64,000 nucleotides of DNA from an uncultured Verrucomicrobiota bacterium (lineage in GTDB: Bacteria > Verrucomicrobiota > Verrucomicrobiia > Limisphaerales > CAIMTB01), in NCBI GenBank assembly GCA_964476125.1, contig CAYZAE010000003.1, forward strand, positions 25,804 to 89,803. Direction: 5' to 3'. This document shows, piece by piece, positions 3,756-51,381 of this stretch; within the stretch, counting starts at the first letter, position 1, and every line of letters begins with the position of its first letter. The notes under the pieces were generated by a model. It saw only the letters and a program-made list of their open reading frames with translations, did not search any database and had not been told where the DNA came from. Made by a program: the position numbers and the translations under genes.

Positions 3756-4145
3756 ATGGAGCACTCCTCCACGGATGTCGGGCGCCTGGTGCTGCCTTGG
3801 CGGCGCCTGGGGAGACGGTTGCTGGGGATCTTCCGCAACCGTCTCGAGCTGGTGCTTTGCGAGATTCAGGAGGAACGCGACCGCCTGGTGCGGGTGATTC
3901 TTCTCGCCCTCGGCGTGGCCGCCTTCGGTTTGCTCGCGGCCATGGCGATGTCGGCCGTGCTCGTGGCCGTGCTCTGGGAAGTGTCCAGGGTCGCGGCCTT
4001 TCTGGGGCTCGCGGGCATCCATGGCGCGGTGGCCTTTCTCCTCTATCGCCGTCTCGCGCTCACCCTGCGGGACTGGGAAAGCCTTCCTGAGACGCTGGGG
4101 CAGCTGCGCAAGGATCGCGCCTGCATGGAAGGGGAAAATCCATGA
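3756..4145 (+). CDS. YqjE-like membrane protein (NCBI names this PF07332 family 'phage holin family protein')
   Basis: The sequence reads IFRNRLELVLCEIQEERDRLVRVILLALGVAAFGLL followed by two hydrophobic helices. Its position immediately after the yqjD-like gene matches the E. coli yqjD-yqjE-yqjK order. Confidence 0.7.
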   Translation: MEHSSTDVGRLVLPWRRLGRRLLGIFRNRLELVLCEIQEERDRLVRVILLALGVAAFGLLAAMAMSAVLVAVLWEVSRVAAFLGLAGIHGAVAFLLYRRLALTLRDWESLPETLGQLRKDRACMEGENP

Positions 4146-35144: not shown

Positions 35145-35153
35145 TCTGATCCG

Positions 35154-35183
35154 CCGACCGGGGTCGGGCGCGGGTTACCGCGC
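35154..35183. terminator. Two adjacent short GC hairpins in the 39-nt gap between convergent lpdA and the HAD gene; possible bidirectional terminator region
   Basis: The hairpins are CCGACC-gg-GGTCGG (35154-35167) and GCGCGG-gtta-CCGCGC (35168-35183). There is no U-tract on either strand. Confidence 0.3.
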
Positions 35184-35873
35184 CTATGCGGGGCGCATGT
35201 CCGATTGGATCCAGGCCGGGATTTCGGTGAGGGACCGGATCTGGAGGTCGCGGGACTGGGCGTCGCGCCGCAGGTGGAGGGCCTGGAGCCCGGCGCCGAT
35301 GGCTCCGGTGAAGTCTTCCCGGAGCGCATCACCGACGTGCAGGACGGCGGTCGTGGGGTGTCCGAGCCGGCGCAAAGCCTCCTCGAAAATCACCGGGGAC
35401 GGCTTCACGAAACCGGTCTCGCACGAGATGACGATGGCGTTGAAGTAGCGGTCCAATCGGAGTTCCCCCAGAAGCGGTCTCAGGCGTTCGTCCCAGTTTG
35501 AGATGATGCCTAGGTCGATCCCCTGCGCGGCGAGGGATTCGAGGGTGGGCAGCACGTCTTCGAACAGCCGCCAGGCCCTGGGAAAGGTGAATTCCTGGTA
35601 GAGTTCCTCGAAGAAGGTTTCGCTGGGCGGCCGCGTGACCAATCCCTCGAACACGGCGTCCACGAGCCGTTCCCAGTCCTGCCGGTGATGCTGGAAGGGC
35701 CGGACCTTGCGCCAGGCTTCGGTGAACCGGGATTCGAGCAGTTCCGGGGAAAGTTTGGGAAAGCCGTGGCGGGCCGCGATCCGGGCGTAGATCTCCCCCA
35801 CGGAAGGCGCCGGGGTGATGAGGGTCCCTCCGACATCGAAGGTGACGGCCTGGAGGCTGGATTTGCGGGGCAT
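35184..35873 (-). CDS. HAD-IA family hydrolase (REG-2-like subgroup)
   Basis: Motif I is the variant VTFDVGGTLI, motif II is ISNWD, and motif IV is HVGDALREDFTGAIGAG. Confidence 0.85.
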   Translation of the reverse strand: MPRKSSLQAVTFDVGGTLITPAPSVGEIYARIAARHGFPKLSPELLESRFTEAWRKVRPFQHHRQDWERLVDAVFEGLVTRPPSETFFEELYQEFTFPRAWRLFEDVLPTLESLAAQGIDLGIISNWDERLRPLLGELRLDRYFNAIVISCETGFVKPSPVIFEEALRRLGHPTTAVLHVGDALREDFTGAIGAGLQALHLRRDAQSRDLQIRSLTEIPAWIQSDMRPA

Positions 35874-35887
35874 GGGTCAGGAGGAGA

Positions 35888-35915
35888 GGGGAGATGGGAG
35901 TGGGGAGATGGGAGT
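35888..35915. repeat. Perfect tandem duplication 2 x 14 nt (GGGGAGATGGGAGT) within a purine-only spacer (35881-35930 on the + strand)
   Basis: Read directly. It occupies the 58-nt gap between the esterase stop (35932) and the HAD start (35873). On the coding (minus) strand it is a C/U-rich leader. Confidence 0.9.
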
Positions 35916-35931
35916 CGGGGGAGGGGAGTTA

Positions 35932-36720
35932 TCAGGGTAAACGGTGGGACAGAAACCAGTCGTAGAGAGCGGGGTTCGCGTAGCTCTCGGTCCATGAATC
36001 GTGGCCCGCTTCCGGATAGGTGGTGAGCCGGACCTTGTTTCCCAGGCGCGCGAAGGCGGCGACCATGGATTGGCTGTCGGCGAGGGGCACGACGGTGTCC
36101 TTGGCTCCGTGAAACGCCCAGATCGGCAGCCGGGTGAGTCCGGATTTTCGTGGTTCCTCGGAGAGCCAGACGCGGACGGGATCGCCCCAGCCGCAGATGG
36201 GGGCAACGGCGGCGAACCGTTCGGGGTGGGCGGTGGCCCAGGCCCAGGTCCCGTTTCCGCCCATGCTCAGCCCGGTCAGGTAGACGCGCTTGGGATCGAT
36301 GGCGTACTGGCGAAGCACTTCGTCGAGGAGAAGTTCCAGTTCGTCGACGTTCCAAAATCGGCCTTCGGGACACTGGGGGGAGACCACGACGAAGGGGAAT
36401 CCGGGTTGGGAAGGGGCGATTTTCGGGGGGCCATGGACTGTGACGCGTTCGATGGCGTTGCCGCGTTCGCCGGCGCCGTGGAGGAAGAGGAGCAGGGGCC
36501 AGGACGGGGTGGTATCGCGTCGGTAGTCGGCGGGAAGAAACACCTGGCATTGGAAGTGCGATTCGAGGGTCCGTGTGGCGAGGAATTCCCGGGGTTTCTG
36601 CGCCCCCGGGGCGTCGGTGAGCGAGGGGAGCGAAGGCTGGGAGACGCACCCGGAAAAGAGGGTGACTGCGGCGGCTGCCACGAAGGAACGCAGGACACGG
36701 TGAATCACAGGGAAGGTCAT
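35932..36720 (-). CDS. Secreted alpha/beta-hydrolase (carboxylesterase/phospholipase-type serine esterase)
   Basis: A signal peptide is followed by LLLFLHGAGERGN, the nucleophile elbow GLSMGGNG, FHGAKDTVVP, and a His in EAGHDSW. Confidence 0.85.
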   Translation of the reverse strand: MTFPVIHRVLRSFVAAAAVTLFSGCVSQPSLPSLTDAPGAQKPREFLATRTLESHFQCQVFLPADYRRDTTPSWPLLLFLHGAGERGNAIERVTVHGPPKIAPSQPGFPFVVVSPQCPEGRFWNVDELELLLDEVLRQYAIDPKRVYLTGLSMGGNGTWAWATAHPERFAAVAPICGWGDPVRVWLSEEPRKSGLTRLPIWAFHGAKDTVVPLADSQSMVAAFARLGNKVRLTTYPEAGHDSWTESYANPALYDWFLSHRLP

Positions 36721-36935: not shown

Positions 36936-37346
36936 GTGGAAGAAGTTCTCAAAACAGATTTGTTGTACGTCGCCGCCTTCTGTCTCGGCGGACTGGTCTT
37001 CGCGGTCGGGCCCTTCGTGGCGGTTTTCCTCCTTTCCGCACGCCGGACCCGGGCTTACGCGAACAAGACGGATCAGGCGGTCGAATGCGGCATGGAACCG
37101 ATCGGCGACGCCTGGATCCGGTACAGCGCTGTTTACTATCTCTACGCGCTCGTCTTTGTCGCCTTCGCGGTGGACGTCCTTTACCTGATCCCCGTGGCCA
37201 TCGTTTACGACCGGGTGTTCCCGATCCGGGACCTGGTCGAGGTGCTTCTCTTTGTTGGGATTCTTTCGCTGGTGATCGTCTACGCCTGGAAGAAAGGGGT
37301 TTTTCAATGGAATCAAAAGAACAGCCGGGATGCGGTTGCCAGGTGA
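36936..37346 (+). CDS. nuoA: NADH-quinone oxidoreductase subunit A
   Basis: This is a three-helix protein with YECGMEP-like [11 protein letters not shown] and [20 protein letters not shown]. The start is GTG as given in the track. Confidence 0.9.
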
Positions 37347-37939
37347 GCGGCGGGTCGCCCCAAGCGCCCGCCGCCACCACCCCCGCGTCCGTCAGCACGG
37401 ACGCCGCCGGAATCGCGCATCCGGTCGAATCAGGGGGGGCTTCGGAGGTTTCCCCGGATTGTTCGTCGATCGTCCGCTTCGCCAAACTGGATGAACTTCT
37501 CGCCCTCGGCCGGGCGAATTCGCTCTGGCCACTGACCTTCGGGCTGGCGTGCTGCGCGATCGAGATGATGGCGGCGGGCGCCTCCCGCTTCGATATCTCC
37601 CGCTTCGGGGCCGAGGTCTTCCGTCCTTCGCCGCGGCAGGCGGATGTGATGATCGTTGCGGGGACCATCAACCGGAAGATGGCCCAGGCCGTGAAGACCC
37701 TTTACGACCAGATGCCCGAGCCCAAGTGGGTGATTGCCATGGGCAACTGCGCGATCTCCGGCGGCCCGTTCGTTTTTCCCGGTCAGTACGCCGTGGTGGA
37801 GGGGGTGGACAAGTTGTTCCCGGTGGATGTCTACGTCCCCGGATGCCCGCCCCGGCCGGAGGCGCTGATCGAGGGCATTCTTGCGCTGGAGGAAAAGATC
37901 ACCGGCAAACGCCGCTGGCCGAGGGTGAAACCCCAATGA
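37307..37939 (+). CDS. nuoB: NADH-quinone oxidoreductase subunit B (carries the N2 cluster) with a low-complexity N-terminal extension
   Basis: Motifs are [18 protein letters not shown] and [12 protein letters not shown] 37307 has AAAGGGG upstream. An alternative GTG start at 37343 would give a GTGA overlap with the nuoA stop. Confidence 0.93.
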
Positions 37940-38496
37940 CGCCGACGCCCACACTCGAGGCCCTGCACATGGCGTTCACCGAGCTTCTGGCGCCCGGCAC
38001 GGAGGCCGCTGTATCTCCCGCATCGGACCTGGCGACGGCGGGATCGGAGTCCGCCGGGAGTCTGGTTGGGGTTGTCGCGCCGGCATCAGCGACGTCGCCG
38101 TGCCAGTTGACCGATCCCAGGAAGAAGGGCTGGCATCTGGATGTCCGGGTGTCGCCGGAGCAGGTGGTGGAGGCGGCCCGGTTGGTCGACCGGCAGGGTT
38201 TTGCGATCGACACCGTGACTGGAGTGGACTGGCTGGCGGCCGGTGAGATGGAGGTGGTGTACGATTTCTTCCACCCGACCCTCCCGCTCCGGATTGTGAT
38301 CCGGACCCGGGTTCCTCGGTCCAAACCCGAGGTCCCGACGATTTCGGAGGTGTTTCCGGGAGCCAACTGGCACGAGCGGGAGACGCACGATTTCTTCGGG
38401 ATTGTGTTTTTGGGGCATCCGGATCTTTCGCCCTTGCTGCTGCCCGAGGACGCCGACTTTCACCCGTTGAGAAAGGATTTCCCCGGTGTTACTTGA
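37936..38496 (+). CDS. nuoC: NADH-quinone oxidoreductase subunit C
   Basis: It overlaps nuoB by ATGA. Matching segments are [20 protein letters not shown] and [27 protein letters not shown]. Confidence 0.9.
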
Positions 38497-39613
38497 GAAA
38501 ACCAGCGGGGTGAAGGTCGGGGACAACGAGACGTTTGTCCTGAACCTGGGGCCGCAGCATCCGGCGACGCATGGGGTTCTCCGGGTCAAGCTGACGATGG
38601 ACGGGGAGTACATCAACCGGGCGGAGCCGGTGCCCGGGTACATCCATCGGATGCACGAGAAGATGGGGGAGAACCGGACCTGGGCGCAGTTTCTGCCGAA
38701 CACGAGCCGCATCGACTACCTTTCGGCGATGACCTACACGCACGCCTATGTGGCGGCGGTGGAGCGGGCGGCCGGGATCGAGGTGCCGCTCCGGGCGGAG
38801 TATCTGCGGGTCATCACTTCCGAACTGAACCGGGTCTCGAGTCACCTGGTCTGGTTCGGGGCGTTCCTTCTCGATCTCGGGGGATTCACGCCGCTGCTGT
38901 ACGCCTTCGACGACCGCGAGAAGATCCTGGACCTGCTCGAGAGTGTGACCGGCGCCCGGCTGACCTACTGTTATTACCGCTTTGGCGGACTCTACAACGA
39001 CGTCGAGCCCGAGTTTCTCTCCGGCACGCTGGATTTCGTGAAGTACATGGGGCCTCGGCTGGACATGTACCGGCAGTTGGTGACGGACAACATCATTCTG
39101 AAGAAACGGCTGGAGGGCGTGGGCCCGATCGACGCGGAGATGTGCCGTCGGTATGGCGCCACCGGTCCGGTGATCCGCGGCGCCGGGGTGCCGTGCGATG
39201 TGAGACGGGTGGAGCCGTACTCGATCTATCCCGAGTTGGATTTTGAGATTCCGGTGTTTCCCGAGGGGGACTGCATGGCGCGGTATCTGGTCCGCATGGA
39301 GGAGATCCGCCAGAGCCTGAGAATCATCGAGCAAGCCATTGGAAAGCTCCCCGAGGGGCCGGTCCAGTCCAAGGTTCCGCGGTCGGTGAAGGTGCCGGCC
39401 GGCGACTATTATTTCGCCGTGGAGGCCGCGCGCGGCCGGTTTGCGGTGCGCATCGTGAGCGACGGGAAGGAGATCCCGTACCGCGTGAAACTCCGGACGC
39501 CCTCGTTTTCAAATCTCAGCCTCTTTGAGGAAGCCAGTCGCGGGATGATGCTGCCCGACGCGCTGGCCCTGATGGGCACGCTGGACCTTGTGATTCCCGA
39601 CATTGACCGCTGA
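38486..39613 (+). CDS. nuoD: NADH-quinone oxidoreductase subunit D
   Basis: Matching segments are LNLGPQHPATHGVLRV, RIDYLSAM, GATGPVIRGAGVPCDVRR, and the C-terminal LDLVIPDIDR. The GTG start overlaps the nuoC end. Confidence 0.93.
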   Translation: MLLEKTSGVKVGDNETFVLNLGPQHPATHGVLRVKLTMDGEYINRAEPVPGYIHRMHEKMGENRTWAQFLPNTSRIDYLSAMTYTHAYVAAVERAAGIEVPLRAEYLRVITSELNRVSSHLVWFGAFLLDLGGFTPLLYAFDDREKILDLLESVTGARLTYCYYRFGGLYNDVEPEFLSGTLDFVKYMGPRLDMYRQLVTDNIILKKRLEGVGPIDAEMCRRYGATGPVIRGAGVPCDVRRVEPYSIYPELDFEIPVFPEGDCMARYLVRMEEIRQSLRIIEQAIGKLPEGPVQSKVPRSVKVPAGDYYFAVEAARGRFAVRIVSDGKEIPYRVKLRTPSFSNLSLFEEASRGMMLPDALALMGTLDLVIPDIDR

Positions 39614-39631
39614 TTTTTCGCCGACACTCCC

Positions 39632-40642
39632 ATGTCCCTCCTGGCCTTCACTCTCAGCCTCCCGGAACCCTACCGGCTGATCGTGTTTCTGGCGGGCACG
39701 ATGGCCTTTGTGGGTTTGAACGCGGCGTATCTGGTGTGGGTGGAGCGGAAGGGGGCGGCGCGGTTTCAGCGGCGTCCGGGCCCGACCGAAGTGGGGCCGG
39801 CGGGGCTGCTTCAGCCGATTGCCGACGCCCTCAAGCTCCTTTCAAAGCAGGTGCATGTGCCTCCGGATGGGGATCGCATGCTGTTCCGTCTGGCGCCGGT
39901 GATGGTGATGGCGCCGGCGTTGATGTGCCTTTCGACGATTCCGTTCAGCGAGACGATCGCGGCGCGGAACCTGGATCTCGGGCTGGTGATGGTGTTTGCG
40001 TTCGGTTCGATCAACGTGATGGCGATCATGCTCGGGGGGTGGGCGTCGCGGAACAAGTACTCGATCATCTCCGCGGCGCGCATCGTCTCCCAGAACGTCG
40101 CCTACGAGATTCCGATGCTGCTGGTGGTGATCACCATCCTGATGATCACCGGCACCACCAACCTGCACACCATCGTGGAGCAGCAGAAGGGTGGGTTCTG
40201 GCACTGGAACATCCTGAAGCTCTCGGCCAACCCGCTGATGCCGGTAACCTTCCTGGTTTACTTCATCTGCATGCTGGCGGAGACGAACCGGGCGCCTTTC
40301 GACATGGCGGAGGCCGAGAGCGAACTCGTCGCCGGCGCCTTCACGGAATACGCCGGCATGGGTTTCGGGGTCTTCTTCATGGCCGAGTACGCCAACATCC
40401 TGGTCGGCTGCAGCCTGGCGACCGTCATCTTCTTCGGGGGCTGGGACAGTCCGATCGGGTTCCTCCCGGGCGTCGTGTGGTTCCTGCTGAAGCTCTACGC
40501 TCTCATTTTCACGGTGGTCTGGGTCCGGTGGACCTTTCCGCGCACCCAGTTCTACCGGTTGCTGAACCTCTCCTGGTACATCCTGATCCCGGTCTCCCTC
40601 GGGATCCTGGTCCTCACCAGCGTGATGCTGAAAATCTTCTGA
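39632..40642 (+). CDS. nuoH: NADH-quinone oxidoreductase subunit H
   Basis: It starts only 18 nt after the nuoD stop. Matching segments are VWVERKGAARFQRRPGP, LLQPIADALKL and AETNRAPFDMAEAESELVAG. Confidence 0.95.
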   Translation: MSLLAFTLSLPEPYRLIVFLAGTMAFVGLNAAYLVWVERKGAARFQRRPGPTEVGPAGLLQPIADALKLLSKQVHVPPDGDRMLFRLAPVMVMAPALMCLSTIPFSETIAARNLDLGLVMVFAFGSINVMAIMLGGWASRNKYSIISAARIVSQNVAYEIPMLLVVITILMITGTTNLHTIVEQQKGGFWHWNILKLSANPLMPVTFLVYFICMLAETNRAPFDMAEAESELVAGAFTEYAGMGFGVFFMAEYANILVGCSLATVIFFGGWDSPIGFLPGVVWFLLKLYALIFTVVWVRWTFPRTQFYRLLNLSWYILIPVSLGILVLTSVMLKIF

Positions 40643-40649
40643 TCCGGCC

Positions 40650-41096
40650 ATGAAACGAGCATTGATCGAATTGCTGAGCGGTCTCTGGAGCCTGGTGACG
40701 GGCATGCGGATCACCCTGCAGCAGTTCTTCAAGAAGGACGTCACCGTGCGCTATCCGCACGAGTCGCTGAAAATGCCCAAGCGTTTCCGCGGCCACGTCG
40801 TCCTGGTCCGGGACCCCGAATCCGGGAAATCCCTCTGCGTCGCCTGCAAGAGCTGCCAGAAGGCCTGCCCCAGCGAATGCATCGTCGTCGATGGCCTCAA
40901 ACGCGAGGGCGAGAAGAAGAAGTCGGTGACCGAGTTCACCGTGGATTTTACCAAGTGCAGCCTGTGCGGTTCATGCGTCGAGGTTTGCCCGGCGGACGCC
41001 CTGGAGTTTTCCAAGGACTACAACATGGCGAGCACCAGCAAGGATGCGTTCGTGCGGATCGACCTCGTGAAACGGATGGAGGAGGGGCCGAAATGA
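40650..41096 (+). CDS. nuoI: NADH-quinone oxidoreductase subunit I (2x[4Fe-4S])
   Basis: Two ferredoxin motifs are present, CVACKSCQKACP and CSLCGSCVEVCP, and the N-terminal part reads RYPHE. Confidence 0.93.
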   Translation: MKRALIELLSGLWSLVTGMRITLQQFFKKDVTVRYPHESLKMPKRFRGHVVLVRDPESGKSLCVACKSCQKACPSECIVVDGLKREGEKKKSVTEFTVDFTKCSLCGSCVEVCPADALEFSKDYNMASTSKDAFVRIDLVKRMEEGPK

Positions 41097-41629
41097 ACGA
41101 GTTTCCGGCAGCCAGGCTGATTCTTCACGCGGTTTTCGGCGCGTCGGTGGTGGTCACCCTTGCCGGAGCGCTGCTGGCGATTTCCACCGTCCGCATCATC
41201 CGGAGCGTGTGCGGACTGGCGCTGTGCTGCGTGGGGCTGGCCGGGGTGTACTACTTCCTGCACAGCCCGTTCCTGGCCCTGATGCAGATCCTCATCTACG
41301 TCGGTGCCGTGTGCATCACGATCATCTTCGCGGTGATGCTGGCGGAGCCGGATGAACCCGAGGAGCCGGCCTCGGAACGGCCCTCGAAGGCTTTGACGGT
41401 TCTTTCGTTGGGTGGCGGGGTGGCCCTGGCCTGGGCGGTGGCGGCCCTGGGATTGGGCGGATCCTGGAAGGTTCCGACGGCACCGCTGGCGAATGATGGA
41501 TCGCTGAAGGCGATCGGGATCGCCTTGCTGACCACCTACAGCGTGGCCTTCGAGACGATGTCGCTGGTCCTGCTGGTGGCGATCCTCGGAGCCCTGGCGG
41601 TGGCTCATGGCGGAAGGAGGCGCGAATGA
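41093..41629 (+). CDS. nuoJ: NADH-quinone oxidoreductase subunit J
   Basis: It overlaps nuoI by ATGA. The sequence FLALMQILIYVGAVCITIIFAVML and the hydrophobic profile are typical of subunit 6. Confidence 0.88.
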   Translation: MNEFPAARLILHAVFGASVVVTLAGALLAISTVRIIRSVCGLALCCVGLAGVYYFLHSPFLALMQILIYVGAVCITIIFAVMLAEPDEPEEPASERPSKALTVLSLGGGVALAWAVAALGLGGSWKVPTAPLANDGSLKAIGIALLTTYSVAFETMSLVLLVAILGALAVAHGGRRRE

Positions 41630-41952
41630 ACGGGGCGGCGATCTATGAGCAACCGGCGGTCTACCTGATTCTGGCGGCGATGCTGCTGGCCATCGGGCTG
41701 GTCGGGCTGATCCGCCGCCGGACCCTGATCGGGATGCTGATCTCGGGCGAGATCCTGTTCATCGCGGCGTCCCTCAATTTCCTGGCCGTGAACCGGTTCT
41801 TCTCTCCCGATCCTGCGGTGGGTCAGGTGTGCGTCCTGTTTCTCATGGGGCTGGCCGCCGCCGAGGTGTCGGTCGGGTTGAGCATCGTGATCGCGGTCTA
41901 CCGCAACTACCGATCGATCCGGTCGAGGGACCTCTCGGAAATGAACGGATAA
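41626..41952 (+). CDS. nuoK: NADH-quinone oxidoreductase subunit K
   Basis: It overlaps nuoJ by ATGA, with GGAAGGAGG upstream. It has three helices. Matching segments are MLISGEILFIAASLNF and AAAEVSVGLSIVIAVYRNY. Confidence 0.9.
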   Translation: MNGAAIYEQPAVYLILAAMLLAIGLVGLIRRRTLIGMLISGEILFIAASLNFLAVNRFFSPDPAVGQVCVLFLMGLAAAEVSVGLSIVIAVYRNYRSIRSRDLSEMNG

Positions 41953-41955
41953 ACC

Positions 41956-43428
41956 ATGCCGGTGCAGCACGACATCCGACTTTTGCTGGCGCTGCTGGCG
42001 CCCCTCGCCGGCGCGGGTCTGGTCATGGCGACCGGGCGCCGTCCCAACGTCCGCGAAGCCTGCTCCTTCCTGTCCGCCGTCGTCTTGTTCGGGCTGACCG
42101 CCTCCCTGATCCCGGAGGTCCGGGCCGGGCACACCCTCGGGTACACCGTGTTCGAGATGCTGCCGGGACTTGCCGTTCGGCTGCGGGCGGATGCGCTGTC
42201 GATGATCTTCGCCGTCTCGGCGTCGTTTCTTTGGATCCTCGCGGTGTCGTATTCGGCGGGGTACATGCGCGGCCTCAAGGAGCATGCGCAGACCCGTTTC
42301 AACGCGTGTTTTGCGCTCGCGCTTTTCGGGGCGATCGGATGCGCGTTCGCGGACAACCTTCTGACGCTCTACCTGTTTTACGAGATCGTTAGCGTCTGCA
42401 CCTACCCGCTGGTGGCGCATCATCAGGATGCGGAAGGGTATGAGGGCGGCCTCAAGTACATGGTCTACCTGACCACGACCGCGAAGGCCCTGGTCCTGCC
42501 GGCCATGGCCATGGTTTACGTGCTCACCGGAACGCTCGATTTCGCCCACAATTCCCACGCGGGCATCCTCCCGGCCACCGCCAGTGCGGGCGTCGTCACG
42601 GTCCTCTACGTCTGTTTCCTGCTGGGGTTCGCCAAGAATGGAATCATGCCGTTCCATCACTGGCTGCCGGGAGCCATGGTCGCCCCGACGCCCGTCAGCG
42701 CGCTGCTGCATGCCGTCGCGGTGGTGAAGGTGGGTGTGTTCTCGACGGTGCGCGTGATGCTGTACGTGTTCGGCACGGAACGGATGCAGGCGCTGAACCT
42801 CGGCATTCCGACGGCGTGGTTCGTCTCGATCACCATTCTTGTGGCTTCGGTGATTGCGCTGACCAAGGACAACCTCAAGTCCCGCCTCGCGTATTCCACG
42901 GTCAGCCAGCTGTCCTACATCATTCTGGGTGTGGCCCTGCTCACGCCGCGGGGCATCGAGGGCGGTTTGGTGCACATGGCGAATCATGCCTTTGCCAAGA
43001 TCACGTTGTTCTTCTGTGCCGGGGCGATCTACGTGGCCACCCACCGGAAGAACATCTCGGAGATGAGCGGGCTGGGTCGTGCCATGCCGTTCACTTTCGG
43101 GGCCTTCGCCGTGGCGTCCCTGGGCATGATCGGGGCCCCGCCGGTCGCCGGTTTCGTGACCAAGTGGAACCTTCTTCTGGGGGCGGCGGATGCGGGATCC
43201 ATCGGTCTCGTTTGCGTGCTGCTGCTGAGCACGTTGTTGAACGCGGCGTATTTCGTGCCGGTGGTGTACACCGCGTTTTTCGGGAAGGCCGCGGACGACC
43301 ACGGGCATCCGCCCCGGGAGGCGCCCCTGGCGATGGTGGTGCCGCTGACCCTGACCGCGGTGCTCTCGGTGGTGTTCGGGTTTTATCCGGATCTGTTCAT
43401 GGACTTCACCCGTGCGGTGCTGAAATGA
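41956..43428 (+). CDS. Extra antiporter-like (Mrp/NuoL-core type) proton-conducting membrane subunit, 490 aa, with no lateral helix
   Basis: The TM5 Glu context is LYLFYEIVSV. The TM7 Lys context is FAKNGIMPFHHWLPGAMVAPTPVSALLHAVAVVKVGVF, and the APTPVSAL-H motif is the one I associate with NuoL/MrpA. The length is too short to include a NuoL C-terminal helix. Confidence 0.85.
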   Translation: MPVQHDIRLLLALLAPLAGAGLVMATGRRPNVREACSFLSAVVLFGLTASLIPEVRAGHTLGYTVFEMLPGLAVRLRADALSMIFAVSASFLWILAVSYSAGYMRGLKEHAQTRFNACFALALFGAIGCAFADNLLTLYLFYEIVSVCTYPLVAHHQDAEGYEGGLKYMVYLTTTAKALVLPAMAMVYVLTGTLDFAHNSHAGILPATASAGVVTVLYVCFLLGFAKNGIMPFHHWLPGAMVAPTPVSALLHAVAVVKVGVFSTVRVMLYVFGTERMQALNLGIPTAWFVSITILVASVIALTKDNLKSRLAYSTVSQLSYIILGVALLTPRGIEGGLVHMANHAFAKITLFFCAGAIYVATHRKNISEMSGLGRAMPFTFGAFAVASLGMIGAPPVAGFVTKWNLLLGAADAGSIGLVCVLLLSTLLNAAYFVPVVYTAFFGKAADDHGHPPREAPLAMVVPLTLTAVLSVVFGFYPDLFMDFTRAVLK

Positions 43429-43685
43429 AGCTGCTGACCATCATTGAATTCCTGCGTCGCAACCTGAAGGCGGTGGTGCGCGCGTCGTGGGTGGTACTCG
43501 CGCTCCTGGTGGTGGTGGATGCCCTTCCGGGGGTGGTGGACAAGGAGCATGCCCACACCGCGGTGGAGCGGTGGCCGGGTTTCTGGGCGGTGTTCGGGCT
43601 GGTGGGTTGCTCCTTTCTGATCGTGGCTTCGAAGGCATTTGGTCATCTGGGAATCATGAAGCGGGAGGACTACTACGATGAGTGA
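43425..43685 (+). CDS. Unassigned 86-aa two-helix membrane protein embedded in the pump-subunit gene block
   Basis: It overlaps the upstream gene by ATGA and the downstream gene by 8 nt. The sequence is MKLLTIIEFLRRNLKAVVRASWVVLALLVVVDALPG...WPGFWAVFGLVGCSFLIVASKAFGHL...KREDYYDE. I recognise no family. Confidence 0.65.
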   Translation: MKLLTIIEFLRRNLKAVVRASWVVLALLVVVDALPGVVDKEHAHTAVERWPGFWAVFGLVGCSFLIVASKAFGHLGIMKREDYYDE

Positions 43686-45462
43686 CCTGTGGGTCCATCC
43701 CTCGGCGATCCTGCTTCTGGGTGCGGCGGGTCTGCCGCTGATTCCGGCCCGGGCGAAGCGGATCTGGCTGCTGCTCATCCCGGTCCTCGCCTTTGTGCGC
43801 ACGGTTGGGCTGGTGAAGGGGGTTTTTGGGCAGGTGACCGTGCTGGATTGGACCCTGGTGTTCGGCCGGGTGGATGGGTTGAGCCAGGTGTTCGGGTACA
43901 TCATGGCGCTGATGGCGGTGGTTGGGACGCTGTACGGGCTTCACGTTCGTGAGGATGCCCAGCACATGGTGGCCTGGACCTATGTGGCGGGTTCGCTGGG
44001 GGCCATTTACGCGGGCGATTACCTGACCTTGTTCGTTTTCTGGGAGTTGATGGCGTTGTCCTCGGTGTTCCTGGTCTGGTTTCGAAGGCGTCCGGAGTCG
44101 GGGCCGGTGGGGCTCCGTTATTTCCTGGTTCACACGGCGGGGGGGTTGGCGCTGCTGGCGGGCATTGTGCTGCAGGCGGGGCAGGCGGGGGGCAGTCTGG
44201 CGTTCGGGGCGGTGGATGTGCATCGGATGACTCCCGCGACGTGGCTGATACTCTCGGGATTCCTGCTGAATGCGGCGGTGCCGCCGCTGCATGCCTGGCT
44301 GCCGGATGCGTATGGCGAGGCCACCTTCAATGGCTCCGTCTTCCTGTGTGCGTTCACGACGAAGACGGCGGTGTACGCGCTTTGCCGCGCCTTTCCGGGC
44401 CTGGAGATCCTGGTGCCGTTGGGGGTGGCGATGGCGTTGTACGGCGTGGTGTATGCGGTATTGGAGAACGACTGCCGCCGGTTGCTCGCGTATCACATCA
44501 TCAGCCAGGTGGGTTACATGGTGGCGGGGGTGGGGATCGGGACGGAGATGGCGATCAACGGCGCCTGCGCCCATGCCTTCGCCCACATCCTCTACAAGGG
44601 CCTGCTCTTCATGGGGTGCGGTTCGATCCTGCACATGACCGGCCGCAGCAAGTTCACGGAGCTCGGCGGATTATACGCCCGGATGCCCTGGACGTTTCTT
44701 TTCACCCTGGTCGGGGGCCTTTCTATTTCCGCGTTTCCGTTGTTCAGCGGGTTTGTCAGCAAGTCGATGATTGTCGCCGCCGGATTCGAACAGCACCGGC
44801 AGACGGCCTCCTTCCTGTTGATGCTGGCCTCGGTGGGTACGTTCCTGCACACCGGTTTGAAGGTTCCCTATTTTCTCTGGTTCGGCCGACGCAACTGCAG
44901 TGACGAGACCTGGGAACGCGCCAAGGAACCGCCCTGGAACATGATGGTGGCGATGGCGGCGGCGGCGGTTCTCTGTGTCGGGATCGGATGCTACACGCCC
45001 TATCTCTACCGGATGCTGCCCCACCCGGTGGAATATCATCCCTACACGGCGTATCACGTCTCCGAGACGCTCCAGATCCTGCTCTTTACGGCGGTCGGAT
45101 TCTTTCTCCTGCTTCGGAAACTTCAGCCGACGCCGACGATCAGCGTGGATCTCGATTGGTTTTACCGGAAGGGCGCGCGGTGGCTGATGCGGATGGCGCG
45201 CGGGCCGGTCCGTCGCGTCGATGACGGGGTGGGGGAGGTCTATCGGGCCGGCGGCCTGGATCCCCTCATGCGGGCGTCGCGGTCGATTGGGCTTTTTGAC
45301 GGCCGGGTGATTGACGGGGCGGTGGACGGTATTGCGACGACGATCCGGGCCGTGGGCGGGCGGTTGCGGTTTCTCCAGCGGGGCGCGATGCAGGAGAGCC
45401 TGGCGGTGGCGCTGGGTGTGGCGGTGGTCCTGCTTCTGGTGGGCCTGGTGCTGATGCGGTAA
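43678..45462 (+). CDS. nuoL: NuoL-like antiporter-type subunit (594 aa) carrying the C-terminal lateral-helix segment
   Basis: The TM5 Glu context is LFVFWELMAL. The TM7 region is LLNAAVPPLHAWLPDAYGEATFNGSVF, with Asn where the other three subunits have Lys. The C-terminus GRVIDGAVDGIATTIRAVGGRLRFLQRGAMQESLAVALGVAVVLLLVGLVL resembles the NuoL amphipathic helix plus final TM (V-DG-V-G ... LQ-G pattern). Confidence 0.8.
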   Translation: MSDLWVHPSAILLLGAAGLPLIPARAKRIWLLLIPVLAFVRTVGLVKGVFGQVTVLDWTLVFGRVDGLSQVFGYIMALMAVVGTLYGLHVREDAQHMVAWTYVAGSLGAIYAGDYLTLFVFWELMALSSVFLVWFRRRPESGPVGLRYFLVHTAGGLALLAGIVLQAGQAGGSLAFGAVDVHRMTPATWLILSGFLLNAAVPPLHAWLPDAYGEATFNGSVFLCAFTTKTAVYALCRAFPGLEILVPLGVAMALYGVVYAVLENDCRRLLAYHIISQVGYMVAGVGIGTEMAINGACAHAFAHILYKGLLFMGCGSILHMTGRSKFTELGGLYARMPWTFLFTLVGGLSISAFPLFSGFVSKSMIVAAGFEQHRQTASFLLMLASVGTFLHTGLKVPYFLWFGRRNCSDETWERAKEPPWNMMVAMAAAAVLCVGIGCYTPYLYRMLPHPVEYHPYTAYHVSETLQILLFTAVGFFLLLRKLQPTPTISVDLDWFYRKGARWLMRMARGPVRRVDDGVGEVYRAGGLDPLMRASRSIGLFDGRVIDGAVDGIATTIRAVGGRLRFLQRGAMQESLAVALGVAVVLLLVGLVLMR

Positions 45463-45490
45463 CCCGGGGAGCAATGAAGGCTTTGCGGAC

Positions 45491-46993
45491 ATGACCCAAC
45501 TCACATCCGACGGTGGTTTTCCCCTGCTGAGCGTGCTGATCTTCGGCCCGCTGGCGGCGGCGCTGGTGGCGGCGCTGTTGCCTGGTGAACGCGGACTGCG
45601 CGCCTGGGCCCTGGCTTCGACGTCCGGGTTCGGACTCCTGTCGCTGGTCCTGCTGACCCGGTTTGATCCGGCGAAGACGGGGTTTCAGTGGGTGGAGCAG
45701 TCGGCGTGGATTCCGTGGTTGAAGATCGACTATGCGCTGGGGATCGATGGCATCAGTCTGGTTCTCATTCTGCTGACGGCGCTGATCTCGCCGTTGTGCG
45801 TGCTGGCGTCGTGGACGTACATCAAGGTCCGGGTCAGGGAGTTCATGGTGTGCCTGCTGGTGATGGAGGCGGCGATGGTGGGGGTGTTCAGTGCCCTGGA
45901 TTTCGTGCTCTTCTTCATGTTTTGGGAGGCGATGCTCATTCCGATGAGCCTGATGATCGGCGTGTGGGGCGGGCCGAAGCGGGTGTATGCGGCGGTGAAA
46001 TTCTTCGTGTACACCATGGCTGGGTCGGTGCTCCTGCTGGTGGCGATCGTGGCGCTTCGGTTGAAGACGGGAAGCTTCAGCATTCCGGGCATGATGGGGC
46101 GGACCTATCCCGTGGAGTTTCAGTGCTGGGTGTTCGCGGCCTTTTTCATTTCGTTCGCCATCAAGGTCCCGATGTTCCCGTTTCACACCTGGCTGCCGTC
46201 GGCCCACGTGGAGGCGCCGACGGCGGGCAGTGTAATTCTGGCGAGCGTGCTGTTGAAGATGGGGACTTACGGATTCCTGCGGTTCTCCCTGCCGATCGTT
46301 CCCTATGCGGCGAAGCTTTTCGCGCCGTGGCTGATGGCGTTGTCGGTGGTGGCCATTGTGTACGGCGGATTGGCGGCCCTGGCTCAGACGGACCTGAAGA
46401 AGCTGGTGGCCTATTCGAGCGTGGGCCACATGGGTTTTGCGACCCTGGGCATTTTCAGCCTGACGCGGGCGGGGTTGGAGGGGGCGACGCTGGTGATGAT
46501 CAATCACGGGGTGACGACCGGGGCGCTGTTCGTGGCGGTTGGTTTTCTCTATGAACGCCTGCACACCCGCGATCTCGGCGCGGCGGCCGGCGTGGGGAAG
46601 GTGATCCCGGTGTACACCGGTTTTCTGGGGCTGTTCTGCCTTTCCTCGATGGCTTTTCCGGGGACGAACAGTTTCGTGGGTGAGTTTCTGGTGCTGGCCG
46701 GCGGGTTGTCGGTCTCGAAGGTTCTGGTGATCTGCGCCGTCCCGGGGGTGGTGGCCGCGGCTGCCTACAACCTGAGAATGCTCCAGCGCGTGGCCTACGG
46801 CGGCACTGCGAATCCCCGGCACGAAGGCGTGAAGGATCTTGGCTGGCGCGAGATCGCGACCCTGGCCCCGCTGCTGGTGCTGGTCCTGTGGATCGGGCTG
46901 CAACCCAAGCCGCTGATGAATCTGATCGAGACCGGGGTCATGCAGATCGTCGGCCAGGTGGCCAACGCCGAGGCGACCATTCCGGGACCCTAG
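45491..46993 (+). CDS. nuoM: NADH-quinone oxidoreductase subunit M
   Basis: Matching segments are GIDGISLVLILLTALI, FFMFWEAMLIPMSLMIGVWGG and FAIKVPMFPFHTWLPSAHVEAPTAGSVILASVLLKMGTYG. Confidence 0.92.
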   Translation: MTQLTSDGGFPLLSVLIFGPLAAALVAALLPGERGLRAWALASTSGFGLLSLVLLTRFDPAKTGFQWVEQSAWIPWLKIDYALGIDGISLVLILLTALISPLCVLASWTYIKVRVREFMVCLLVMEAAMVGVFSALDFVLFFMFWEAMLIPMSLMIGVWGGPKRVYAAVKFFVYTMAGSVLLLVAIVALRLKTGSFSIPGMMGRTYPVEFQCWVFAAFFISFAIKVPMFPFHTWLPSAHVEAPTAGSVILASVLLKMGTYGFLRFSLPIVPYAAKLFAPWLMALSVVAIVYGGLAALAQTDLKKLVAYSSVGHMGFATLGIFSLTRAGLEGATLVMINHGVTTGALFVAVGFLYERLHTRDLGAAAGVGKVIPVYTGFLGLFCLSSMAFPGTNSFVGEFLVLAGGLSVSKVLVICAVPGVVAAAAYNLRMLQRVAYGGTANPRHEGVKDLGWREIATLAPLLVLVLWIGLQPKPLMNLIETGVMQIVGQVANAEATIPGP

Positions 46994-46999
46994 AAACGA

Positions 47000-48442
47000 G
47001 TGACGATGTTCCACCCAGGCGCATTCCTTCCCGAATTGGTGCTGCTGGCCGGCGCGCTGGCCATCTTCCTGACCACGCTGCGGGCGTCGGACGGCCGGCT
47101 GGCCGGCCGGGTGACCCTTGGCGTGGCTGTGGCGACGCTGCTGGCCGCCGTGCTTGGGCTGAAGCAAGAGGCGCTGATGTTCGACGGGGCCTATCGCGTC
47201 GACGCCTTTTCCCAGGGCCTGAAGCTGGTTTTTTCCGTGGGTTTCGTGCTGGTGTCGCTGCTGAGCGGCCGGCTTGGGGACATTCGTGAGGATGTGCGGA
47301 GCGAGTACTTTCTCTTTCTGACCTTCAGCGTTCTCGGCTTCGAGTTGCTGGCGAGCTGCATTGAATTGATGGCCTTGGTGGTGGCCCTTGAGCTGGCTTC
47401 CTTCCCGCTCTTTCTCGCGGTGGCGCTGCGGCGTGAACGGGCGGGGCAGCGCCGGCAGCTGGAGTCGGCGATGAAGTACGTGATGTTCGGGGTGGCGGCG
47501 AACGGCATCATGTTCTTCGGGTTGAGCTACCTCTTCGGACTGACCGGAACCACGTCGCTGCCATTGATGGCCGAGAGGCTGCGACCGGTGATGACCACGC
47601 CCCTGGCTGTGGCCGGTCTGCTGATGGCGCTGGCCGGGGTCTGGTACAAGCTGGCGGTTTTTCCGTTCCACTTTTGGACGCCGGATGTCTACCAGGGGGC
47701 TTCGAACGAAACGGCGGGTTGGGTGGCTTCGTTGCCGAAGCTTGGCGCGGTGGTGGTGTTTTATCGGTTCATGGCCATGGCGGCCCCCGATGGCCGGGCG
47801 GTCCCGATGGTTCTGGCGGTGCTGGCCGGGGCCTCGATGCTCTACGGCAATCTTCTGGCCCTGGGTCAGACCGACTTCAAGCGCATGCTCGGGTTCTCGG
47901 GCATCGCCCATGCCGGTTATGCGCTCCTGGGTTTTGTGTCCCTGGATGTCTCCGGCCATGCGGCGGCCCTGTATTACATGACCGCTTACATGGCGATGGT
48001 GCTGGCCTGCTTCACGGTCATCAGCCGGGTGTCCGCCGATGGGGTGAACGTGGCGATTTCGGATCTCGCCGGATTGCACCGCCGCTCGCCGTTGCTTGCG
48101 ATCACCCTGATGGCTGGCGTGTTTGGCCTGGCCGGGATTCCGCCCCTGGCGGGTTTCATGGGCAAACTGGCGCTGTTCACGGCGGCGCTCCGACAAGGTC
48201 ATCTGGCTCTCGTCATCCTGGCGGTCCTGAATGCGGCGGTGGCGATCTACTATTACCTCTCGGTGGTCCGCGAAGTTGTGTTTGGGGATCCGGGATCCCG
48301 GCCGGCGATCGTTCTGGATCCGCCGACCCGCATGCTTTGTGCATTTCTGGTGCTGATCATCGTGGTGCTCGGCGTGATGCCGGGACCGCTGTTTGAGGCC
48401 ATCGGTCAGGCGCTCGGGGCGGCGGCCCTCCCGGGACGTTGA
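47000..48442 (+). CDS. nuoN: NADH-quinone oxidoreductase subunit N
   Basis: The start is GTG. Matching segments are LVVALELASFPLF, WYKLAVFPFHFWTPDVYQGASNETAGWVASLPKLG and LLGFSGIAHAGY. Confidence 0.9.
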   Translation: MTMFHPGAFLPELVLLAGALAIFLTTLRASDGRLAGRVTLGVAVATLLAAVLGLKQEALMFDGAYRVDAFSQGLKLVFSVGFVLVSLLSGRLGDIREDVRSEYFLFLTFSVLGFELLASCIELMALVVALELASFPLFLAVALRRERAGQRRQLESAMKYVMFGVAANGIMFFGLSYLFGLTGTTSLPLMAERLRPVMTTPLAVAGLLMALAGVWYKLAVFPFHFWTPDVYQGASNETAGWVASLPKLGAVVVFYRFMAMAAPDGRAVPMVLAVLAGASMLYGNLLALGQTDFKRMLGFSGIAHAGYALLGFVSLDVSGHAAALYYMTAYMAMVLACFTVISRVSADGVNVAISDLAGLHRRSPLLAITLMAGVFGLAGIPPLAGFMGKLALFTAALRQGHLALVILAVLNAAVAIYYYLSVVREVVFGDPGSRPAIVLDPPTRMLCAFLVLIIVVLGVMPGPLFEAIGQALGAAALPGR

Positions 48443-48567
48443 GAGACAGCCGGGCCGGACAACTGGACCCATGAGACTCGTGAGAGCCGATTAGCGTATT
48501 CAGTCAATAACGAATTCTTGCCAACGGCAGTGCGTGGGCAGAGATTCCGGCATTCCCCTGGAGCGGT

Positions 48568-49968
48568 ATGAAAGATTCCCCTTTTCCGACGGAGGGTGTT
48601 CGGCACGCGTGGTCCGAGTTACCGGCCGAGGACCTTCCGAGACGCCCGGTGAGCGAGCGGGTCGTCGATTTTCGCGAAGTGCACGAGGCCTTCACGCCGG
48701 AGGCCGCCCAGGCCCAGGCGGAACGTTGCGTCCAGTGCGCGCATCCGGGCTGTGTGGAGGAGTGTCCCGTCGGCAGTCCCATTGAGGAATGGATGCAGCT
48801 GGTGGCCGAGGGGCGCTTCCAGGAGGCGGCCCGGATTGCGCGGGAGTCGAATGCCATTCCCGAAATCTGCGCCCGGCTATGTCCCCGGGATCATCTGTGC
48901 GAGCGGGGATGTGTTCTGGGCGGGCCGTCGGAGCCGGTGTGCATCGGGGCGCTCGAGCAGTTTCTGCAGGACTATTCGCTGGGAGTGAGCGAGGCGGAGG
49001 ACCGTTTGGCGGAACCGAACGGTCGGCGGATCGCGGTGGTGGGGGCGGGGGCCGCCGGTTTGGCTTGCGCCGACGAACTCTCGCGCCGCGGCTATTCGGT
49101 GACTCTTTTTGATTCCGGGACCGATCCCGGGGGCGGACTGGTGCGCGGGACCGCGTCGTTCCGGCTTGATCCCGCGGTGGTGCAGCGACGGGTGGTCATC
49201 CTGCGCGAGCGGGGGGTGGAGTTTCGCCTCGATGCCCCGCTGGGCGAGTCCGTGTCGCTCGCCGGACTGAGGAAGGAGTTCGATGCGGTGTTCGTTGGAC
49301 TTGAGGCGCGTCAGGCGCGTCTGTTGCAGGTGCCGGGGGCCCACTTGAATGGGGTGACCGACGGTCTGGCCTTGATGGCCCGGATCACTTCGGGGGTGCG
49401 GCCGGATTGGAACAATCGCCGGGTTGTCGTGGTCGGGGACGAGGATCTCGCGATTGATTGCGCGCGATCCGCGGTGCGTTGCGGAGCGGCGTCGGTGATC
49501 GTGATTTCGGCGGCAGGCCAGGCCGACATGGGGTGCAGCCGCCGGGATTTCGACTGCGCGAGGGACGAAGGGGTCCGTTTTGTCTGGGAGCAGGTTCCGG
49601 TTTCGATTCACGGCGATGCCGCGCGGCAGGTTACGGAAGTCCAGACGGTGCGGGTGGCCCGGCTTCCGATGGAGGACGGCCGGGGTTCCCGGATGGGCCT
49701 GGTGCCGGGGACGGAGGAGACCCTGGGTGCGGACATCGTGGTGGTGGCGCTGGGGTTTGACCGTCAGGCGGTGGGTTTGCCAGGCGATTTCGTGGAGCTC
49801 GGGGCGGATGGGTTGGGGGAAGTGCTGGTGGATCGGCGTCAGATGACGCATCTGCCTGGCGTGTTTGCGGGCGGGGAAGTGGTCCGAGGACCCTGCGATG
49901 TGGTTCACGCCATTCGCGATGCCCGCCAGGCTGCCATTGGGATCGGACAGTATCTGGGGATCGGGTGA
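48568..49968 (+). CDS. GltD-like NAD(P)H-dependent Fe-S flavoprotein (glutamate synthase small-subunit / NfnB / PreT family)
   Basis: The N-terminal Fe-S cysteine pattern is AERCVQCAHPGCVEECP ... ARLCPRDHLCERGC. The dinucleotide folds are RIAVVGAGAAGLACADEL and VVVVGDEDLAIDCARSA, and the C-terminal part reads PGVFAGGE. Confidence 0.88.
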   Translation: MKDSPFPTEGVRHAWSELPAEDLPRRPVSERVVDFREVHEAFTPEAAQAQAERCVQCAHPGCVEECPVGSPIEEWMQLVAEGRFQEAARIARESNAIPEICARLCPRDHLCERGCVLGGPSEPVCIGALEQFLQDYSLGVSEAEDRLAEPNGRRIAVVGAGAAGLACADELSRRGYSVTLFDSGTDPGGGLVRGTASFRLDPAVVQRRVVILRERGVEFRLDAPLGESVSLAGLRKEFDAVFVGLEARQARLLQVPGAHLNGVTDGLALMARITSGVRPDWNNRRVVVVGDEDLAIDCARSAVRCGAASVIVISAAGQADMGCSRRDFDCARDEGVRFVWEQVPVSIHGDAARQVTEVQTVRVARLPMEDGRGSRMGLVPGTEETLGADIVVVALGFDRQAVGLPGDFVELGADGLGEVLVDRRQMTHLPGVFAGGEVVRGPCDVVHAIRDARQAAIGIGQYLGIG

Positions 49969-50301
49969 TTCGATTCCCCGGGGATCCCGACGGGGCTTGT
50001 GCAAGGCGTCGGCTCGGGCAAGAGCTAGAAAGGCCGTCCGGACTGCTGGAATCGCGTACGCGGAATTGCCGGGCTGGCTGGTGATTCTTTCCTGGGTTGT
50101 GCTTCCGGGAATCTTGCTCTTGTCGTGTTCGACTGATAACACCCAAGGCATCACATCCCGCCACCCCTGGGAGTTCTTCAAATTCACGGACGGACGTGGA
50201 GGTCCGTCCGGCGGATGAGGAGAGGTGCTCTGGGACAGGCTGGGAAGAGAAGCGTTGATCCGCGCGAACCCGCCGTTTGTCCACCCACTCCCCCACCCAC
50301 G

Positions 50302-51285: not shown

Positions 51286-51381
51286 CGGGGGGGCGCTGAG
51301 GTCGCGGGAGACTTCAGTGCGGAGGGGGTGCCGGGCGAATGATCGCTTTACCGTCCGGGGGCCGGGTGGTAAGCGAATGCC

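Follow-up and report, generated by a model that had tools for sequence, protein, structure and literature searches.

The 64-kb window analyzed here (64,000 nucleotides of contig CAYZAE010000003.1, from an uncultured Verrucomicrobiota bacterium) carries, between positions 36936 and 48442, a 13-gene operon for an enzyme of the complex I family. The operon is best explained as encoding a member of the green complex I lineage that lacks the NuoE, NuoF and NuoG proteins (NuoEFG) and assembles as a single complex with four pumps, a reading of its identity and architecture that is given a probability of ~75%. The distal membrane arm consists of NuoN, NuoM and, in the position of nuoL, a three-gene cassette that encodes an antiporter-like protein of 490 residues (X490), a small protein of 86 residues (s86) and a second antiporter-like protein of 594 residues (L594). 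The last of these provides the lateral helix (HL) and the transmembrane helix (TM) 16 that normally come from NuoL. The 13 open reading frames (ORFs) all lie on the + strand in the order nuoA-B-C-D-H-I-J-K-X490-s86-L594-M-N and are listed here with the gene that follows them; all coordinates are positions in the 64-kb window.

nuoA, 36936..37346, + strand: 136 aa; NCBIfam NuoA model NF005839 is the top match, under its cut-off; Pfam Oxidored_q4 in the JGI call on an identical contig.
nuoB, 37307..37939, + strand: 210 aa; NF005012 and TIGR01957 above their cut-offs; start uncertain, with a 40-nt overlap with nuoA.
nuoC, 37936..38496, + strand: 186 aa; NuoC_fam TIGR01961 is the top match; ATGA overlap with nuoB.
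nuoD, 38486..39613, + strand: 375 aa, quinone-site subunit; Complex1_49kDa (E 1e-91); NF004739 above cut-off.
nuoH, 39632..40642, + strand: 336 aa; NADHdh (E 3e-107); NF004741 above cut-off.
nuoI, 40650..41096, + strand: 148 aa, two [4Fe-4S] motifs; TIGR01971 NuoI above cut-off.
nuoJ, 41093..41629, + strand: 178 aa; Oxidored_q3 (E 2e-31); ATGA overlap with nuoI.
nuoK, 41626..41952, + strand: 108 aa; Oxidored_q2; NF004320 above cut-off; ATGA overlap with nuoJ.
X490, 41956..43428, + strand: 490 aa, antiporter-like ("MrpD1" of green complex I); Proton_antipo_M; NF006236.
s86, 43425..43685, + strand: 86 aa, two-TM protein; no Pfam or NCBIfam family.
L594, 43678..45462, + strand: 594 aa, antiporter-like with HL and TM16 ("MrpD2"); Proton_antipo_M; NF009310.
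nuoM, 45491..46993, + strand: 500 aa; TIGR01972 NDH_I_M, 595 bits against a cut-off of 264; Proton_antipo_M.
nuoN, 47000..48442, + strand: 480 aa, JGI start at 47006; NuoN TIGR01770, 319.5 bits, just under the cut-off of 332.6; Proton_antipo_M.
gltD/nfnB-like gene, 48568..49968, + strand: 466 aa, Fe-S flavoprotein with Fer4_20 and Pyr_redox_2; candidate electron-input protein.

The genes nuoA, B, C, D, H, I, J and K were identified by Pfam and NCBIfam. A preliminary description of this DNA had proposed the same 13-gene order, with proteins of 490, 86 and 594 residues, and both the order and the coordinates were borne out by the ORFs and by the Pfam and NCBIfam matches. The ATGA start/stop overlaps that it placed at 37936, 41093, 41626 and 43425 were verified, and the 18-nt gap between the end of nuoD (39613) and the start of nuoH (39632) is likewise exact.

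Conservation of the operon was assessed in a scan of one genome per species, which revealed relatives in 355 species, and the loci examined were the best 80 of these 355. An alignment of two s86 sequences gave access to 15 further metagenome loci, analyzed with 8-kb flanks, in which s86 is 33-40% identical. The 13-gene order was identical in all 80 species loci, as far as each contig extends, and in all 15 of the divergent metagenome loci. The carriers belong mostly to the Verrucomicrobiota (Limisphaerales, Pedosphaerales, Opitutales and Methylacidiphilum), the others, from five further phyla in all, being Desulfobulbales, Ca. Acidoferrum, Latescibacterota, Lentisphaerae and Planctomycetota. 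With 68-87% identity across loci, X490 is among the best conserved subunits. The distance between nuoD and nuoH is a few bases in all loci, and the overlaps of X490 with s86 (-4) and of s86 with L594 (-8) were each retained in 62 loci. The operon is neither a product of chance nor a quirk of assembly; its architecture is real, ancient and widespread.

The relationship of the membrane arm to green complex I was established by comparison with rhizobial plasmids. In a tblastn search of plasmids, relatives of X490 were found on pSymA of Sinorhizobium meliloti and on Rhizobium plasmids (55% identity). The pSymA cluster reads nuoJ, nuoK, an MrpD-family protein of 487 aa, a hypothetical protein of 84 aa, a "Na+/H+ antiporter subunit D" of 586 aa and then nuoM-N-A-B-C-D-E-F-G. 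Reciprocal best matches to this cluster were obtained for X490 (55% identity), s86 (46-48%), L594 (52%) and NuoM (54%), those of X490 and L594 extending over nearly the full length. Given that the cassette and NuoM are orthologous to their pSymA counterparts, the membrane arm encoded in the window is that of a member of the green complex I lineage. The arrangement that characterizes green complex I, with two MrpD-like subunits between nuoK and nuoM and no canonical nuoL, is present in the window.

All four of X490, L594, NuoM and NuoN carry Proton_antipo_M, in agreement with the four antiporter-like subunits of the preliminary description. The classification of X490 and L594 was based on the ranking of scores in hidden Markov model searches and in searches against the PDB. 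X490 scored 805 bits against the curated NCBIfam equivalog NF006236 (cut-off, 663) and 202 bits against NDH_I_M, under the cut-off of 264, and is therefore not of the NuoM type. The extra subunits are not NuoM-like: X490 and L594 fall into curated families of their own, NF006236 and NF009310, respectively; for L594 the score was 751 bits against a cut-off of 564. In the profile ranking against the PDB, the best solved relative of X490 was MbhH (6cfw_H), followed by NdhF, NuoL, MbsH and MrpA, and the best solved sequence relative of L594 was MbsH' of the Pyrococcus MBS complex (6u8y_X). X490 is only ~26-30% identical to L594 orthologues, and vice versa, and so the two proteins are not the result of a recent duplication.

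The residues associated with proton transfer were compared among the four proteins. The full set of TM5 Glu, TM7 Lys, TM8 Lys (or His), connecting His and TM12 Lys or Glu is present in X490, NuoM and NuoN. In X490, the five canonical charged or polar positions are occupied by E143, K227, K258, H344 and K403, none of which varies among 78 orthologues. The NuoM pattern (E146/K225/K256/H339/E398) is that of E. coli NuoM, and E131, K217 and K389 of NuoN align with E. coli NuoN. These residues mark X490 as a predicted additional pump subunit in which every canonical charged residue is in place. L594 keeps four of the five positions, with E123, K229, H303 and K362 invariant in 73 orthologues; in all 73, that of S. 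meliloti included, Asn198 is found instead of the TM7 Lys, which is present at this position in NuoL, NuoM, NuoN, HyfB, HyfD, HyfF and X490.

An AlphaFold2 model of L594 was obtained with a mean predicted local distance difference test score (pLDDT) of 72 and a confident core. In this model, TM15 spans residues 461-481 and TM16 spans residues 571-593, and the helices between them (494-525 and 528-568) amount to ~75 helical residues. A Foldseek search with the model returned NuoL, NdhF and MrpA chains at the top, with ND5 and MbsH' lower (MbsH' at rank 23). The NuoL-type C-terminal helix that had been attributed to the 594-residue subunit is supported by both the model and this ranking, and on the model L594 belongs to the NuoL/MrpA/MbsH' class as the HL-bearing subunit. 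The spacing between TM15 and TM16 is 95 residues in L594 and in its rhizobial orthologue, compared with 80 in E. coli NuoL, which implies that the helix of L594 is close to the canonical length and falls short of an extension by one full subunit width. In the MBS structure, MbsH' is held to MbsH by its horizontal helix and TM16, an arrangement also seen in MrpA and MrpD. Public annotations of the L594-type protein read "Na(+)/H(+) antiporter subunit D".

The small protein s86 is universal in the operons examined and always lies between X490 and L594. A total of 676 homologues were detected, and the s86 profile matches 768 representative clusters at 50% identity; the alignment contains 26 invariant columns. 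The two-helix character that had been proposed for the 86-aa protein stood up to analysis: two TM helices are predicted, and the AlphaFold2 model (mean pLDDT, 72) comprises two TM helices and, at the N-terminus, a basic helix. An invariant K-x-x-A-H motif and a P-G/A-F-W motif are located in the interhelical loop, and the C-terminus reads E-D-Y-Y-D. Because the s86 gene overlaps both of its neighbors, translational coupling of X490, s86 and L594 is probable. No Pfam or NCBIfam family matched s86 above its cut-off. The only Pfam match, Phage_Mu_Gp37 (E 0.009, under cut-off), was treated as noise. A profile search of the PDB gave no convincing chain match for s86. The resemblance of residues 47-85 to the light-harvesting-complex helix motif E-x-x-x-x-R-W-A-M-L-G was judged to be a chance one between TM helices, the whole-sequence E value of 1e-4 having been obtained on a repeat-containing light-harvesting chain with a per-domain E value of >1.

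The peripheral part of the enzyme was assessed by alignment with E. coli subunits. The tandem-Cys CCxxE motif of NuoB and two further Cys residues for cluster N2 align with E. coli NuoB, the eight Cys residues of NuoI align with those of E. coli NuoI, and His29 and Tyr78 of NuoD align with His224 and Tyr273 of E. coli NuoCD. In E. coli these residues are the ligands of N2 and of the [4Fe-4S] clusters and, for NuoCD, constituents of the quinone site. At the level of sequence, the Q-module (NuoB, C, D and I) is complete: no ligand of N2 or of the NuoI clusters is missing, nor are the His and Tyr of the quinone site. NuoH, NuoA, NuoJ and NuoK, which form the proximal part of the membrane arm, are also present.

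NuoEFG were sought by tblastn with E. coli NuoE, NuoF and NuoG and S. meliloti NuoE and NuoF as queries in the window and in 86 related loci with flanks of up to 10 kb. No homologue of NuoE, NuoF or NuoG was detected in the 64-kb window, in accord with their reported absence from the operon, nor was one detected in 85 of the 86 related loci or in the 15 divergent metagenome loci with their 8-kb flanks. The arrangement of the canonical 14-subunit NADH:quinone oxidoreductase, with nuoE, nuoF and nuoG encoded with the operon, is therefore not that of this locus. The sole NuoF/G-like sequence near any operon was observed in one locus (L082, 19082-20246, - strand), where it lies on the opposite strand ~2.5 kb beyond a GltD-like gene and may belong to a hydrogenase or formate dehydrogenase.

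The preliminary description had envisaged a Q-module joined to an enlarged membrane arm, and this is upheld by the family assignments, the pump residues, the structure model and the conservation across phyla. In the mechanism proposed here, all 13 products would form one complex. The helix of L594 would clamp X490 against NuoM, by analogy with MrpA/MrpD and MbsH'/MbsH, and s86 might sit at the X490/L594 interface as an assembly or stabilizing subunit. With four antiporter-like modules and the NuoH/A/J/K channel, the enzyme could translocate an additional proton for every two electrons, relative to canonical complex I. Electrons would enter at NuoI from a source other than NuoEFG.

A candidate for such a source is the product of the GltD-like gene, whose start lies 126 nt beyond nuoN in the same orientation, with no terminator-like hairpin between the two genes. 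The best solved relatives of this protein are GltD and the large, GltD-like subunit of Nfn, both of which are matched over the full length; the protein falls under every NCBIfam cut-off. When every ORF lying up to 4.5 kb from either end of the operon was clustered across loci, the GltD-like family was the sole recurrent flanking family, present in 21 loci including the window, and the next clusters consisted of antisense shadow ORFs of the same gene. It lies immediately upstream of nuoA in nine loci, immediately downstream of nuoN on the same strand in 11 (including the window) and downstream on the opposite strand in one, with gaps to the nuo genes of -3 to 440 nt. The loci concerned represent several orders of Verrucomicrobiota and one Ca. 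Acidoferrum. No gltB or PyrK-like partner recurred beside the gene in the flank clustering. Enzymes of the GltD/Nfn type pass a hydride from NAD(P)H to FAD and then single electrons via two [4Fe-4S] clusters to a partner. That the gene is linked to either end of the operon points to a functional relationship, and its product could dock on NuoI. A gltD-like flavoprotein has also been described inside mbx-like operons of Thermotoga (Degli Esposti 2015).

As electron donor in this window, the downstream GltD/NfnB-type NAD(P)H-oxidizing flavoprotein is the first choice, if a tentative one. Direct binding of reduced ferredoxin or flavodoxin, on the pattern of other EFG-less enzymes, is the second choice and a slightly more doubtful one. 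A stand-alone NuoEFG encoded elsewhere is improbable, and the remaining probability falls to other donors or to reverse operation. The broader proposal, that in Verrucomicrobiota and at least one lineage of Acidobacteriota a stand-alone GltD/NfnB-type flavoprotein with FAD and two [4Fe-4S] clusters serves as a detachable NAD(P)H-oxidizing input module docking on NuoI of a four-pump, EFG-less green complex I with a universal, previously unnamed two-helix subunit, is possible but less likely than not.

Alternative explanations concern both the source of electrons and the unity of the complex. Reduced ferredoxin or flavodoxin might be the direct donor at NuoI in all lineages, with the GltD-like gene encoding a separate NAD(P)H-linked enzyme that has no physical link to the complex. 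EFG-less enzymes related to complex I are generally thought to use ferredoxin or flavodoxin, the donor being openly unresolved, and two thirds of the loci have no GltD-like neighbor. On redox grounds, a low-potential donor would also better pay for an extra pump with menaquinone as acceptor. Recruitment of the GltD-like gene at both operon ends in different lineages, its position within -3 to 25 nt of nuo genes in some loci and its lack of a recurrent partner gene of its own all speak for a closer association, and a universal ferredoxin or flavodoxin donor is regarded as unlikely, though a serious contender. An ordinary NADH dehydrogenase with NuoEFG encoded elsewhere in the genome would leave only the membrane arm unusual. 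Such a split operon would be in keeping with the orthologous rhizobial cluster, which contains nuoE, nuoF and nuoG, and with published reports of genomes in which nuoEFG form an operon apart from an 11-subunit nuo operon; moreover, only 64 kb of the present genome are visible. Against this stand the lack of NuoE/F/G in the window and in the 15 divergent loci, and the finding that, in the 86 related loci, the opposite-strand sequence of L082 is the only one within 10 kb of the operon. A fixed EFG partner would be expected to show some linkage over ~95 loci and the sole linked gene is GltD-like, which makes the split operon improbable.

The enzyme might instead work mainly in reverse, the proton-motive force driving electrons from quinol to ferredoxin or NAD(P)+ via the four pumps. 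Reverse flow has been proposed for the related five-pump Complex_I_3 of Ca. Manganitrophaceae (Yu et al.; PMC9040806), and a similar role is implied for the rhizobial form of green complex I, whose expression rises in nitrogen-fixing symbiosis. By contrast, most carriers of the present operon are Verrucomicrobiota, the neighboring genes in the window (for a 2-oxoacid dehydrogenase, a sulfatase-maturing enzyme and a prepilin-like protein) point to a heterotroph and the locus shows no sign of a need for reverse electron flow, which leaves this explanation with a small share of the probability. A further alternative denies that the cassette belongs to the complex at all: X490, s86 and L594 would constitute an Mrp-type cation/proton antiporter of their own, sharing no more than a transcript with a nuo operon that is itself incomplete. 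The two large proteins carry the name "Na+/H+ antiporter subunit D" in both NCBI and JGI annotation, and their best solved sequence relatives, MbhH and MbsH', belong to MBH and MBS, complexes related to Mrp, with MrpA and MrpD chains scoring close behind. The operon encodes no homologue of MrpB, C, E, F or G, however, all genes from nuoA to nuoN being assigned to other families, and without L594 it would have no lateral-helix subunit. Furthermore, the cassette occupies the nuoL slot in every examined locus that spans this part, and in the rhizobial operon it has stayed with nuoJ-K and nuoM-N despite the rearrangement. A separate antiporter is accordingly considered highly improbable.

Several observations weigh against a single four-pump, EFG-less complex fed by the GltD-like protein. 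Co-assembly of the 13 products is a prediction from the genes, and the enzyme, although common, is biochemically unstudied, with no member purified or solved. The best solved relatives of X490 and L594 are ~20-30% identical, and the HL/C-terminal region of the L594 model is of low confidence (pLDDT 36-53). The L594 helix may not span all four pumps, since its excess over the canonical length is less than one subunit width. Given that the TM7 Lys is missing in every orthologue, L594 may not pump conventionally. The absence of NuoEFG applies to the window and to the loci searched with their flanks. Finally, the GltD-like gene is adjacent in only about one-third of the loci with enough flank, and none was found at the Desulfobulbales loci or the divergent metagenome loci.

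Individual loci showed further variation. The divergent metagenomic lineage (L093-L104), with s86 at 33-40% identity, has the 13-gene order intact and no GltD-like neighbor. In one of its loci, L100, nuoC and nuoD are fused in one ORF of 524 aa (2364-3938), and the flanks contain unrelated genes only (an SLT transglycosylase, a nitroreductase and a His-biosynthesis gene). In a Verrucomicrobia metagenome-assembled genome (L021), the operon and an upstream GltD-like gene are flanked by weaker Nuo-like genes at 438-1927 and 15318-16551; those upstream are a nuoC/nuoD-like pair (39-41% identity) and those downstream are nuoI- and nuoH-like matches (31-40%). The appearance is as if the operon had been inserted into, or beside, another complex I-like cluster.

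The window DNA was found to be identical on 18 metagenome contigs. The JGI gene call on an identical contig makes 37307 the most likely start of nuoB. The 5' end of nuoB from this start (37307-37470) encodes a low-complexity N-terminal extension of ~55 residues without counterpart in E. coli and S. meliloti NuoB, and the true start may lie further downstream; nuoN may likewise start at 47006. The gene upstream of nuoA lies on the opposite strand. A scan for sigma-70 promoters returned no match, and terminator-like matches were at background level. A 1068-aa ORF (45266-48472, - strand) runs antisense to nuoM and nuoN, and similar antisense ORFs cover the GltD-like gene in other loci; it is read as a shadow ORF of GC-rich coding DNA and not as a gene. 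JGI Pfam calls on identical contigs place 2-oxoacid dehydrogenase E2/E3 genes, a HAD hydrolase and an esterase upstream (33756-36720) and an FGE-sulfatase-domain protein and an N_methyl prepilin-like protein downstream (50215-52329). These surroundings are compatible with a PVC-type heterotroph.

An enzyme of this type is encoded in at least 355 sequenced species, its small subunit accounts for hundreds of metagenome protein clusters, and it is routinely misannotated as "Na+/H+ antiporter subunit D" and a hypothetical protein. As a natural complex I with a fourth pump module and a terminal subunit that is always without the TM7 Lys, it provides a useful test case for disputes over the coupling of antiporter-like subunits and the sites of proton exit. 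The conserved GltD-like neighbor offers a concrete lead, open to experiment, on how electrons may enter an EFG-less complex I. If it does serve as an input module, it would represent a third, independently recruited "N-module" of the complex I family and one concrete answer, for one lineage, to what feeds 11-subunit-type complex I.

The operon can be compared with several known systems. Two four-pump forms, the Nitrospira 2M complex I and green complex I, are named as known by Yu et al. (2022; PMC9040806), where green complex I is described, citing Degli Esposti & Martinez-Romero (2016), as having two MrpD-like subunits in place of NuoL. Green complex I of S. meliloti shares with the window the cassette of an MrpD-like protein, a small hypothetical protein and an HL-bearing "Na+/H+ antiporter D", followed by NuoM and NuoN, and has the same Asn in place of the TM7 Lys in the HL-bearing subunit. 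It differs in having nuoE, nuoF and nuoG and in its gene order (J-K-X-s-L-M-N-A-B-C-D-E-F-G, compared with A-B-C-D-H-I-J-K-X-s-L-M-N in the window), and NuoN (32% identity), NuoA (30%) and NuoJ (26%) are much less alike. The window has neither the rhizobial gene order nor nuoEFG in the cluster, features that may define green complex I as a whole or only its rhizobial members.

Complex_I_3 of Ca. Manganitrophaceae likewise replaces NuoL by a pair of MrpD-like subunits that are relatives of the green complex I ones; as described in PMC9040806, however, it has five pumps, NuoM is present twice and 26 residues are inserted in the MrpD2 lateral helix, whereas the window has one NuoM and the rhizobial-like spacing of 95 residues. 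The Nitrospira-type 2M complex I (Chadwick et al. 2018, as reported in PMC9040806) also has four antiporter-like subunits, with a proposed extra proton per cycle. Its extra subunit is a duplicated NuoM and it retains a true NuoL with a helix insertion; in the window, the extra subunit is not of the NuoM type and NuoL is replaced. The second nuoM and the ~26-residue insertion in the NuoL helix that characterize the 2M form were not found, the spacing in L594 exceeding that in E. coli NuoL by just 15 residues.

The 11-subunit EFG-less enzymes of Chlorobi, Desulfitobacterium and Bacteroides and the cyanobacterial NDH-1 also combine an intact Q-module with the lack of an N-module and with a donor that is unknown or of the ferredoxin type, an acknowledged open question in the literature. 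They have a single canonical NuoL or NdhF and three antiporter-like subunits, compared with four in the window. The MbsH/MbsH' pair of Pyrococcus MBS (Mbx) and the MrpD/MrpA pair of Mrp represent the group with the best solved sequence relatives of X490 (MbhH and then MbsH) and of L594 (MbsH'), and in their solved structures the HL and TM16 clamp the partner subunit. In the P. furiosus MBS operon, the plain subunit gene presumably precedes the HL-bearing one, the same order as in X490/L594. The window is otherwise of the Nuo type with a quinone site and has neither an Mrp sodium module nor a sulfur- or proton-reducing module; no gene between nuoA and nuoN matched an Mrp B, E, F or G model in Pfam or NCBIfam, all being assigned to Nuo, X490, s86 or L594 families.

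The preliminary description had left open whether this exact combination had been described. No description of the EFG-less 13-gene form was found in the literature searched, although Degli Esposti & Martinez-Romero (2016) may already note EFG-less relatives; the membrane arm, with the small protein, is orthologous to that of rhizobial green complex I. Novelty is therefore lower than had been implied. The membrane arm is already known under the name of rhizobial green complex I, and curated NCBI models exist for both large subunits. To these known features the present analysis adds the universal s86 with its double gene overlap, the invariant Asn in L594 and the recurrent GltD-like neighbor.

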